Notes: a model not told the origin generated them from the letters alone. DNA of 32,118 nucleotides from a virus (IMGVR_UViG_641736163_000005), one strand, 5' to 3'; positions 16,861-18,467 are shown, numbered from the stretch's first letter. Translations and numbers: made by a program.

Positions 16861-16904
16861 CTGATGTATGTCTCCGTCACCGCCGACAGAAAATGAAAGT
16901 AAAG

Positions 16905-16941
16905 AAAAACAAAAAAGCCGCCAGTGTCACCCACTGACGGC
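16905..16941 (-). terminator. strong intrinsic terminator on late strand just upstream of S
   Basis: Minus-strand hairpin GCCGTCAGTG-GGTGA-CACTGGCGGC followed by TTTTTTGTTTTTC. Confidence 0.55.
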
Positions 16942-17116
16942 CAACACCGGGAGCCGTGATTATGGCATTCAGGCTCTGCTAAAAATGCCAGATAACATTC
17001 CGGCTCCCCCCCTGATTCAGGTTATAAATGACACAATATCTTGACAACATCCGTCACTGTCTGTCAGAAAATGTACCGCCATATAGAAGCAACATGTGAA
17101 GTACATCTATCCTTTT

Positions 17117-17162
17117 GAGCCAGCACCTCTTCACCGAAAGTCAGTGCTGGCTGTTTTTTTCC
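17117..17162 (+). terminator. plus-strand hairpin-terminator (module A), antisense to late operon
   Basis: Stem GAGCCAGCAC...GTGCTGGCT followed by GTTTTTTT; TTGACA at 17041-17046 lies about 75 nt upstream. Confidence 0.45.
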
Positions 17163-17267
17163 TTAATAAAGCATCTGTAACTGAAACAATCCGCATATTG
17201 ATAATATATTGACAGGCATCATTGCTGTCTGTGAAAAATAAGTCTCTACAAACATATAAGGCCTTTT

Positions 17268-17307
17268 AGCCAGCGTCTTCTTTCAGGTCAGTCGCTGGCT
17301 TTTTTTA
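17268..17307 (+). terminator. plus-strand hairpin-terminator (module B), antisense to late operon
   Basis: Stem AGCCAGCG...CGCTGGCT followed by T7; TTGACA at 17209-17214 about 55 nt upstream; abuts the nanS-like stop codon on the other strand. Confidence 0.45.
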
Positions 17308-18467
17308 TTATGCTGCCGGTGCATTTATCTCCAGCACCAGACTTTCTATCTCAACGCCATACGCTGCATTTTTTGTAACATCCGTCAGCGTCAGCGCATT
17401 CAGTCCCAGTGTCAGACTGTCTTTTATAACCTGGAATGCCGGGCCAGCCACTCCATTCAGTTTCGGAGTAACCGTGGCACTGCCGGCGGTGAACACCAGC
17501 TCCAGCGCCTGCCAGTCGTTACTGTAGTTCCCGAATTCCCCCAGCTTCGTGTTTCCTGACTTCCTGTGGTGCATCAGATTCAGTTTGCCGTCGGTGGTCT
17601 GCGTAAAGTACGACATCAGGAACGGATCACCAGTCCCCGTCATCGTCACACCATCAGGAACAGGAGCGTCTGTGTACAGATAAAGCCCCAGTCCAAACTG
17701 GTTGTTTGTCAGAGCACCAGTCAGACGGAACTTACAGGTCAGCTTCCCTCCCCGGCTCAGCAGTGAGGATGCATTCTTCACCGGATGCGATAGTATCCAG
17801 CTTTTACCGCTCTCTTTGACAATTCTCAGTACGCCATCCGATAACTGAACGCTGCCCCCGGTAATATTCCACCCCTGAGAAGCAACATCGCCGGCGGAGG
17901 CCAGAAGCGATATCGATTCCAGGGATGAGTCATCCGGCGACGTAGAGCCACCTGCTGATGGTGTGTTCTCCGGTTTTACACCGGCAATAAATGCCTGTGA
18001 GCGCCCTGCCTGCGACAGGATAGCCGAGGCCATTCTGTCTGCAATAATCCCACGCCGTGCCCAGGCACTGAAATGGCTCGCACGGTCTGCTGACGTCCAG
18101 TTGGCCGATGTCCGGGATGCCGCTCCGTAATAACCGGCAGCCACGATATCCGGATCTTCCGTCGGCTCATTCGTGGGCGTGTTTTCACCACTGCTATCTG
18201 TCATAAAAGGAACAAAGAAAATATTCTGTGCTTCCTTTCCTTTATAAGCGCCATACACCGCCTCATATTGTGTGGCGTACTTCTGTTTCCAGATGTATGT
18301 GGTGTCGCCACAAATCCACGGCACTTTTTGAGCGCTTCCACCATGACACTGCGCCGCCATACCGGCAAGGTCGCTACGGAACTGCTGCACCATCGACTGG
18401 AATGCTGCAGGCGGTGATGCAGCCAACTTACTGATTTAGTGTATGATGGTGTTTTTGAGGTGCTCCA

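Follow-up and report, generated by a model that had tools for sequence, protein, structure and literature searches.

PasA and EcOnc51/EcOnc52 orthologues: two related small RNA units opposite the late genes of a viral genome

The viral genome IMGVR_UViG_641736163_000005, analysed here as one stretch of 32,118 nucleotides (nt; hereafter the window), carries on its plus strand two short units of the same build in the gap (16861-17307) that separates the gene for a class II holin of P21 type from the 3′ end of a SASA/DUF6645 esterase gene. Our preferred reading, which we hold to be highly likely, is that this gap houses two paralogous genes for small RNAs (sRNAs) that bind Hfq and pair through it in trans with other transcripts, the first (unit 1) being PasA and the second (unit 2) EcOnc51/EcOnc52. 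Because the flanking holin and esterase genes both lie on the minus strand, the two RNAs run antisense to the late transcript, as the initial annotation of the window had proposed. That annotation had further placed candidate sRNAs of about 65-90 nt on the plus strand, one at 17075-17160 and one at 17243-17307, and had been unable to match them to any named RNA. The prediction of sRNAs was right, with PasA at 17076-17160, EcOnc51/EcOnc52 at about 17240-17317 and the predicted transcript ends falling within a few bases of the published ones, but both RNAs had already been named. What this analysis adds is modest. It corrects the mapping of EcOnc51/EcOnc52, reads the two units as paralogues and PasC as a hybrid, and argues that unit 2 is a gene of its own with the wider distribution.

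Identity of the two units

PasA (E2348CN_0003) was described in enteropathogenic Escherichia coli (EPEC) E2348/69, where it is encoded on the minus strand of NC_011601, starts at 743499 and ends either at 743415 (the major form, 85 nt) or at 743264 (the minor form, 236 nt) (PMC8550237, Table S6). It has been validated by Northern blotting, is stabilised by Hfq, and takes part in 41 interactions recorded by sequencing of ligated pairs of interacting RNAs (RIL-seq), with an interaction rank of 12 in EPEC (PMC8550237). The whole intergenic region of the window aligns almost base for base with prophage PP2 of E2348/69, and 83 of the 85 bases of PasA are identical, the two substitutions in the window being C for U at +2 and U for C in the terminator loop. 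The two loci also have the same neighbours, a SASA esterase gene and a class II holin gene; strand, seed GCCAGCACCU and terminator agree as well, as does a second terminator downstream. They differ in that the esterase gene of the window is split by the insertion sequence (IS) IS1. The minor form of PasA maps to 17076-17309, that is, through terminator 1 to the second terminator, and would measure about 234 nt here. Judged by its sequence, unit 1 is an orthologue of PasA, an RNA already published and shown in E2348/69 to be an Hfq-dependent transcript of about 85 nt; the identity over 85 nt together with the seed, the esterase-holin synteny on the opposite strand, and the 3′ stem-loop followed by poly-U are all found here. 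PasA and its relative PasC are flanked by a sialic-acid esterase gene on one side and by the holin-lysozyme operon on the other, NC_011356 being the phage taken to represent PasA (PMC8550237; bioRxiv 10.64898/2026.05.13.724894), and the setting of esterase, PasA or PasC, and holin seen in this study agrees with that arrangement. The Rfam search that had been suggested with the initial annotation gave no match for either unit: the database has no PasA or EcOnc51 family, the whole window at the gathering threshold returned three transfer RNAs (tRNAs) only, and a search relaxed to E = 10 over 16700-17500 returned only chance matches resembling small nucleolar RNAs, with AgvB/AsxR (RF02702, RF02703) and STnc100/PasD (RF02076) not matched.

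EcOnc51 and EcOnc52 were reported as peaks of 77-78 nt, flagged with Rho-independent terminators, from cross-linking and analysis of cDNA with Hfq (Hfq-CRAC) in prophages Sp12 and Sp4 of enterohaemorrhagic E. coli (EHEC) O157:H7 Sakai (Tree et al. 2014, PMC4104026). The coordinates given by Tree and by Waters refer to an older Sakai assembly, the offset of which relative to NC_002695.2 is +136 at Sp12 and +1 at Sp4, as derived from the read sequences in the supplement of Waters et al. on RNase E cross-linking, ligation and sequencing of hybrids (CLASH). After this correction both peaks fall on unit 2 and neither falls on the 85-nt PasA, whereas Pearl Mizrahi et al. label EcOnc51/EcOnc52 as PasA ‘homologues in EHEC (EcOnc51/EcOnc52)’ (PMC8550237, Table S6). 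Unit 2 is identical to EcOnc51/52 at 76 of 78 positions, the edges of the peaks agree with its predicted start and terminator, and the Sakai copies carry an additional CT where the stem meets the U-run; unit 2 is, on this alignment, the orthologue of EcOnc51/52 and as such likewise already published. RNase E-CLASH hybrids include the unit-2 terminator sequence, and the EPEC RIL-seq entry pasA.E2348C_0688.IGR, which covers the unit-2 region (for example terminator 2, at 743267-743294), takes part in five interactions, including one with escD, and always stands as the second RNA of its chimeras, which is the signature of an sRNA. Published Hfq data, a kind of check to which the initial annotation had pointed, comprise Hfq-CRAC peaks on unit 2 and, for PasA, stabilisation by Hfq and many RIL-seq interactions. 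For near-identical loci, the literature covers the existence of the RNAs, the sizes of the PasA forms, the stabilisation of PasA by Hfq, the binding of Hfq by both units, the partners from RIL-seq and CLASH, and read-through from unit 1 (PMC8550237; PMC4104026; Waters et al.).

There is a likeness in design to AgvB and AsxR (RF02702, RF02703), the prophage-encoded sponges of GcvB and FnrS, which like PasA and unit 2 are short, bound by Hfq, and placed in the moron area of a late region. A conserved 3′ part joined to a variable 5′ part is the plan of the AgvB/AsxR family, and PasA and a PasA-2-like variant show the same pattern. There is no sequence or covariance-model match between the two groups, however, and the AgvB/AsxR locus lies beside stx, 3′ of PR′; sponge activity is known for AgvB/AsxR, to which PasA and unit 2 are likened by build only.

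Promoters, terminators and relationship of the units

The elements on which the initial annotation was built, namely TTGACA at 17041 and 17209, the TGTCTGT spacing, and the hairpins with their T-runs, are all present at the places it gave, and the putative promoters of the two units share one layout (Table 1). TGTCTGT begins 17 nt after the start of TTGACA in both (17058-17064 and 17226-17232), and the combined pattern TTGACA-N10-CTGTCTGT has two matches in the 32-kb window against a mean of 0.02 in shuffled sequences, none of 100 of which gave two. Each promoter combines a perfect -35 with a TG two bases before the -10 and a -10 hexamer that agrees with the consensus at only three of six positions (CAGAAA and GAAAAA); the -10 elements had rightly been described as weak, and it is because of this weakness that the consensus scan called neither promoter. 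Counted from the -35, the reported 5′ ends of PasA and PasC come after 30 nt and the EcOnc peaks begin after about 26-29 nt, a spacing that in all three fits a -35, an 18-nt spacer and a weak -10 extended by TGn. Variable columns number only 3 of 47 in the promoter of the unit-1 family but 19 of 42 in the 5′ part that is transcribed, so that the variable zone begins at the transcript start. The aligned copies of unit 2, a plasmid copy of 92% identity among them, all keep the stretch that runs from TTGACA through the -10 region without change. It is from these features that we infer both promoters. As a search pattern the 14 bases have their limits: over broad genome contigs they were too unspecific and gave chance matches in unrelated phyla only, and the scan of IMG/VR gave useful loci after BLAST filtering.

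Each unit closes with a hairpin whose fold is more stable than that of shuffled sequence, at -16.9 kcal/mol (z = -2.9) for hairpin 1 and -16.0 kcal/mol (z = -5.7) for hairpin 2; a terminator scan picked up hairpin 2 in its inner part alone and did not report hairpin 1, the loop of which is longer than the scan allows. Directly 5′ of the stem lies a U-rich stretch (CCUUUUGAG in unit 1 and CCUUUUAG in unit 2), seven U follow each stem, and most of these columns are invariant across the family. Both units therefore carry the combination by which Hfq-dependent trans-acting sRNAs are classed, that is, a U-rich stretch, a GC terminator hairpin, and at least six U. In an alignment of 13 sequences, 90% of the cells of the terminator stem pair, 5 of the 11 pairs change on both sides, and none of 500 shuffles reaches the observed score; compensatory changes include C-G to U-A in one homologue (L082) and A-U to G-C between the two units.

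Could the hairpins be only terminators or insulators of a phage moron region, with no functional RNA, or could the 38-aa open reading frame (ORF) at 17096-17212 encode a small protein? The curators of phage 434 annotated two plus-strand terminators in the esterase-holin gap of that phage and described both sites simply as such, and the ORF is one that was listed mechanically. Stable, Hfq-bound RNAs of fitting size have nevertheless been published (PMC8550237; PMC4104026), and the copies of both hairpins on the late strand have no following U-run, so that they are not bidirectional terminators and cannot end late transcription. The ORF, for its part, runs through the T-run and is not conserved, because copies differ in the length of that run, a difference that would put the frame out of register, and because PasC-type loci lack the region; the initial annotation, too, had seen no convincing ORF in either unit. 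We regard these explanations as very improbable.

The relatedness of the two units, which had been proposed from their common build, is borne out by local alignment, with a score of 33.5 against 10.0 ± 2.0 for shuffled sequences (z = 11.9), and together with the shared promoter layout and the compensatory changes in the terminator stems this leads us to infer that they are paralogues. A family set of 23 distinct unit sequences, drawn from IMG/VR and the reference loci, falls into three architectures: a pair in which unit 2 comes after PasA or after a variant answering to Zhu’s account of PasA-2, a lone hybrid unit of PasC type, and unit 2 alone. All family matches lie within Escherichia, namely E. 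coli and E. albertii with their prophages, phages and plasmids. PasC (E2348CN_0005, in prophage PP5 of E2348/69) has the same promoter and the same position of the 5′ end as unit 1, and its 5′ part is unit-1-like, whereas its terminator is of unit-2 type (GCCAGCG...CGCTGGC, then UUUUUUUAUUAUGC). It stands directly after the stop codon of the esterase gene and, unlike the two-unit locus of the window, is a single unit of 78 nt with a loop and inner stem of its own. This mixture suggests that PasC may have arisen by recombination between unit 1 and unit 2, that is, as a fusion of the two.

Table 1. Features of the esterase-holin gap and its flanks in the window
Feature	Position	Strand	Basis
Putative promoter 1: -35 TTGACA (17041-17046), 18-nt spacer ending TGt (17062-17064), weak -10 CAGAAA (17065-17070)	17041-17070	+	Sequence
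PasA sRNA orthologue (unit 1), major 85-nt form	17076-17160	+	Identity to E2348/69 PasA (Table S6 coordinates)
Terminator 1: 9-bp stem AGCCAGCAC (17118-17126) with GTGCTGGCT (17144-17152), then G and U7 (17154-17160)	17118-17160	+	Fold; major 3′ end of PasA; phage 434 terminator
Seed of PasA as published (GCCAGCACCU), within 5′ arm of terminator 1	17119-17128	+	Fig. S5 of Pearl Mizrahi 2021 (PMC8550237); identical in window
Putative promoter 2: -35 TTGACA (17209-17214), 18-nt spacer ending TGt (17230-17232), weak -10 GAAAAA (17233-17238)	17209-17238	+	Same layout as promoter 1
Unit-2 RNA, EcOnc51/EcOnc52 orthologue; also 3′ end of PasA read-through form	17243-17309	+	Corrected peak mapping; minor 3′ end of PasA at 17309
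Terminator 2: 8-bp outer stem AGCCAGCG (17268-17275) with CGCTGGCT (17293-17300), U7 (17300-17306), then ATT	17268-17306	+	Fold; phage 434 terminator
CUGGUGCUGGA in last esterase codons, complementary to PasA seed	17330-17340	-	RIL-seq motif sites in E2348C_0688 and E2348C_1246; same sequence in window
Class II (P21 S-type) holin gene, left flank	16654-16860	-	ORF list; Pfam PF04971, E = 1.2e-32
nanS-p-type SASA esterase, C-terminal fragment (DUF6645), right flank	17308-18426	-	ORF list; Pfam DUF6645
Esterase N-terminal piece, DUF1737 and SASA	19212-20039		Pfam

Mode of action and the autonomy of unit 2

On the preferred reading, unit 1 is most likely transcribed from its perfect -35 and extended weak -10, with a start near 17076; most of its transcripts would end at terminator 1, giving 85 nt, and a minority would read through to terminator 2, giving about 234 nt. 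Unit 2 would probably have a promoter to itself, alike in layout, with a start near 17243 and an RNA of about 65 nt as its product. On each RNA the U-rich stretch, the GC hairpin and the poly-U tail would make up the usual Hfq-binding module, and Hfq would help the RNAs to pair in trans with messenger RNAs (mRNAs) of the host and of its islands, PasA doing so through the seed in the 5′ arm of its terminator. Regulation in trans would be the main activity in lysogens, because the late transcript is absent there. The RIL-seq targets of PasA share a motif complementary to its seed (PMC8550237), and such a site is also found at the 3′ end of the esterase gene (Table 1). The pairing with the esterase is cited here on the published 8-nt seed match only: when PasA or unit 2 is paired over its full length with the 3′ end of the esterase, the duplex reaches about -34 kcal/mol, which is not clearly better than the -28 ± 4 kcal/mol obtained with shuffled targets.

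An action in cis would be a different use of the same RNAs, which as antisense RNAs or as sites of convergent transcription against the transcripts running from the esterase to the holin and lysis genes might limit the leaky expression of the lysis genes or tune the timing of lysis after induction. Lambda OOP RNA, acting against cII mRNA, offers an analogy. Each RNA is complementary over its whole length to the intergenic transcript of the late strand, their place beside the holin-lysozyme cassette is conserved in PasA, PasC and PasD1, a late-strand RIL-seq fragment overlaps the 5′ end of PasA (E2348/69 743494-743512), and the 3′ end of the esterase mRNA is among the pairing partners of PasA. 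Most of the recorded partners, however, are trans-encoded mRNAs of the core genome and of islands (ftsB, frr, bfp and genes from the enterocyte effacement locus); pairing in trans with other transcripts is what the published data contain, and cis-antisense control of late mRNA is not among them. PasA and PasC are, moreover, seen in uninduced EPEC cultures (the ‘activating’ condition in Dulbecco’s modified Eagle medium), in which late transcription is expected to be off, unit 2 persists on plasmids and beside IS elements with no holin near, and no experiment ties these RNAs to lysis. We therefore think a primarily cis-acting role improbable and favour pairing in trans; in a bolder version of the reading that makes unit 2 autonomous, the pair of units might also act in cis on transcripts entering the holin gene.

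A further question is whether the locus holds one gene or two. If PasA were the sole unit and merely possessed tandem terminators, unit 2 would be the 3′ extension of the 236-nt isoform and its TTGACA the silent relic of a duplication. Pearl Mizrahi et al. indeed count the 236-nt RNA as a minor form of PasA and merge pasA.E2348C_0688.IGR into PasA, and some transcripts do run on from unit 1, as a probe specific for unit 1 detected the band of 236 nt (PMC8550237). In addition, a CLASH read over 17219-17244 of the window crosses the supposed promoter 2, the -10 of that promoter is weak, and the G that stands between the stem of terminator 1 and its U-run could make this terminator leaky. Against a single gene stands the distribution of Hfq: the table of Tree et al. 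(PMC4104026) has peaks on unit 2 in two Sakai prophages and none on unit 1 of Sp12, which suggests that unit 2 is a transcript from its own promoter and not just the tail of PasA, and the 5′ edges of these peaks lie at a distance from the -35 that is near the 30 nt of PasA and PasC. The distribution of the units themselves points the same way. A count over 5426 complete E. coli genomes gave 2299 places for unit 2 (in 677 genomes; 100 of the places are on plasmids) and 1419 for unit 1 (in 646 genomes; one on a plasmid). About 100 copies on EHEC plasmids are of unit 2 without unit 1, and 62 Escherichia plasmids in PLSDB carry unit 2. Unit 2 stands alone in Sakai Sp4 and in contig L122, where 20 nt separate its -35 from the end of an IS629 upstream; in contig L101 another junction is found at nearly the same site, and plasmid pRM8385-1 retains unit 2 together with the spacer. 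Unit 2 has thus outlasted the loss of unit 1 in at least three separate truncations or insertions, and its promoter is kept in every stand-alone copy at an IS junction. On balance a single gene seems unlikely to us, and we judge it probable that unit 2 is transcribed independently.

Several points nonetheless weigh against the reading of two separately transcribed sRNA genes. Both -10 elements are weak and neither promoter was called by the consensus scan, the published 5′ ends rest on read coverage and Northern size instead of on the mapping of primary 5′ ends (PMC8550237), and according to Zhu et al. the mature 5′ end of PasA may arise by cleavage of a longer transcript (bioRxiv 10.64898/2026.05.13.724894). 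The CLASH read that spans promoter 2 implies that RNA enters the start of unit 2 from upstream; since identical copies of unit 2 exist in Sakai and reads map to several of them, the CRAC reads cannot prove that the Sp4 copy is expressed; and a separate 65-nt unit-2 RNA has never been seen on a blot, because the Northern probe for PasA was specific for unit 1. The transcript evidence, finally, comes from the near-identical loci of E2348/69 and Sakai and not from this window, and no published phenotype or validated target regulation was found for PasA or EcOnc51/52.

With these points set against the evidence above, we lean, if only somewhat, towards regarding unit 2 as an autonomous third member of the PasA/PasC family that lacks a Pas name, with its own promoter, a seed of GCCAGCGUCU type and a wider spread that includes EHEC virulence plasmids. 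The tandem would then give rise to PasA, to the unit-2 RNA, and to a two-headed RNA of 234-236 nt with two Hfq modules and two seeds, while PasC would be the product of recombination between the units.

Surroundings of the locus and implications

The intergenic region is 95-98% identical by megablast to its counterpart in Stx1a phages, YYZ-2008 (NC_011356), H-19B and phage 434 (Stx, Shiga toxin), and the equivalent holin gene is also annotated in phage 434 and in E2348/69. The IS1 that splits the nanS-p-type esterase gene of the window occupies 18468-19144, with InsA at 18468-18743 (Pfam). In the closest complete genome, that of E. coli 2013C-4465, this prophage is present with its esterase gene unbroken (613 aa) and with no stx between Q with its tRNAs and the esterase. 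Three tandem tRNA genes lie at 20561-20794 on the minus strand, between the Q antiterminator region and the esterase, as in late regions of Stx-phage type; ARAGORN calls two of them (Gly-UCC and Asn-GUU), and Rfam adds the third, at 20642-20714, which ARAGORN missed. A further sRNA-like sequence is found at 20012-20089 on the minus strand, where the 3′ 78 nt of PasD2, comprising its seed region and terminator, match at 83% identity and the 5′ part has diverged; the match lies immediately upstream of the esterase start and overlaps it, which is the published position of PasD, and Rfam STnc100 is not matched there. HnrS (EcOnc10-12) was not found within the window.

Within the gap itself, the late strand carries a terminator-like hairpin just upstream of the holin start (16916-16942, minus strand), formed by GGCCGUCAGUG...CACUGGCGGC and followed by U6GU5, with the U-run extending to about 16905. 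It folds at -20.5 kcal/mol (z = -3.7), is kept in all homologues, and is annotated as a terminator in phage 434; it might halt transcripts of the esterase gene that are not antiterminated by Q ahead of the lysis genes. The C7 run that had been noted at 17006-17012 (G7 on the minus strand) is present and lies within a hypervariable stretch, 17004-17014, which in homologues reads GGGGAGG, GGGGGTGG, GGGGTTGG or G9AG. A long late-strand stem at 17014-16950 (GGGAGCCG with CGGCUCCC), the source of a regional fold of -48.5 kcal/mol, was rejected as particular to this window, because the G-run varies among homologues without compensating changes and the pairing with 16950-16957 is not kept elsewhere. 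A divergent promoter-like site (17021-17046, minus strand), consisting of TTGTCA, a 15-nt spacer and TATAAC, overlaps the -35 of the PasA promoter and is aimed at the holin gene; its spacer is short, the promoter scan made no call, and no transcript evidence was found for it. Between the two units, at about 17186-17190, two junctions with foreign DNA fall a few bases apart in loci L005, L122 and L101, about 20 nt upstream of the unit-2 -35, one being the end of an IS629 and the other of different sequence, and this stretch between the sRNA units may be an insertion hot spot.

These findings leave the current view of sRNA biology unchanged, and their use lies in annotation. Intergenic regions of this kind can be labelled as PasA plus EcOnc51/52, both of which are missed by pipelines that rely on Rfam, and after correction of the Sakai offset the EcOnc51/52 label belongs to unit 2 and not to the 85-nt PasA. 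Unit 2 is the more abundant of the two and is the one that has moved to plasmids. Since PasA is among the EPEC sRNAs richest in RIL-seq interactions, and since its family is concentrated in the prophages of EPEC and EHEC, including Stx1 phages, correct annotation of these units matters for work on the regulation of virulence.

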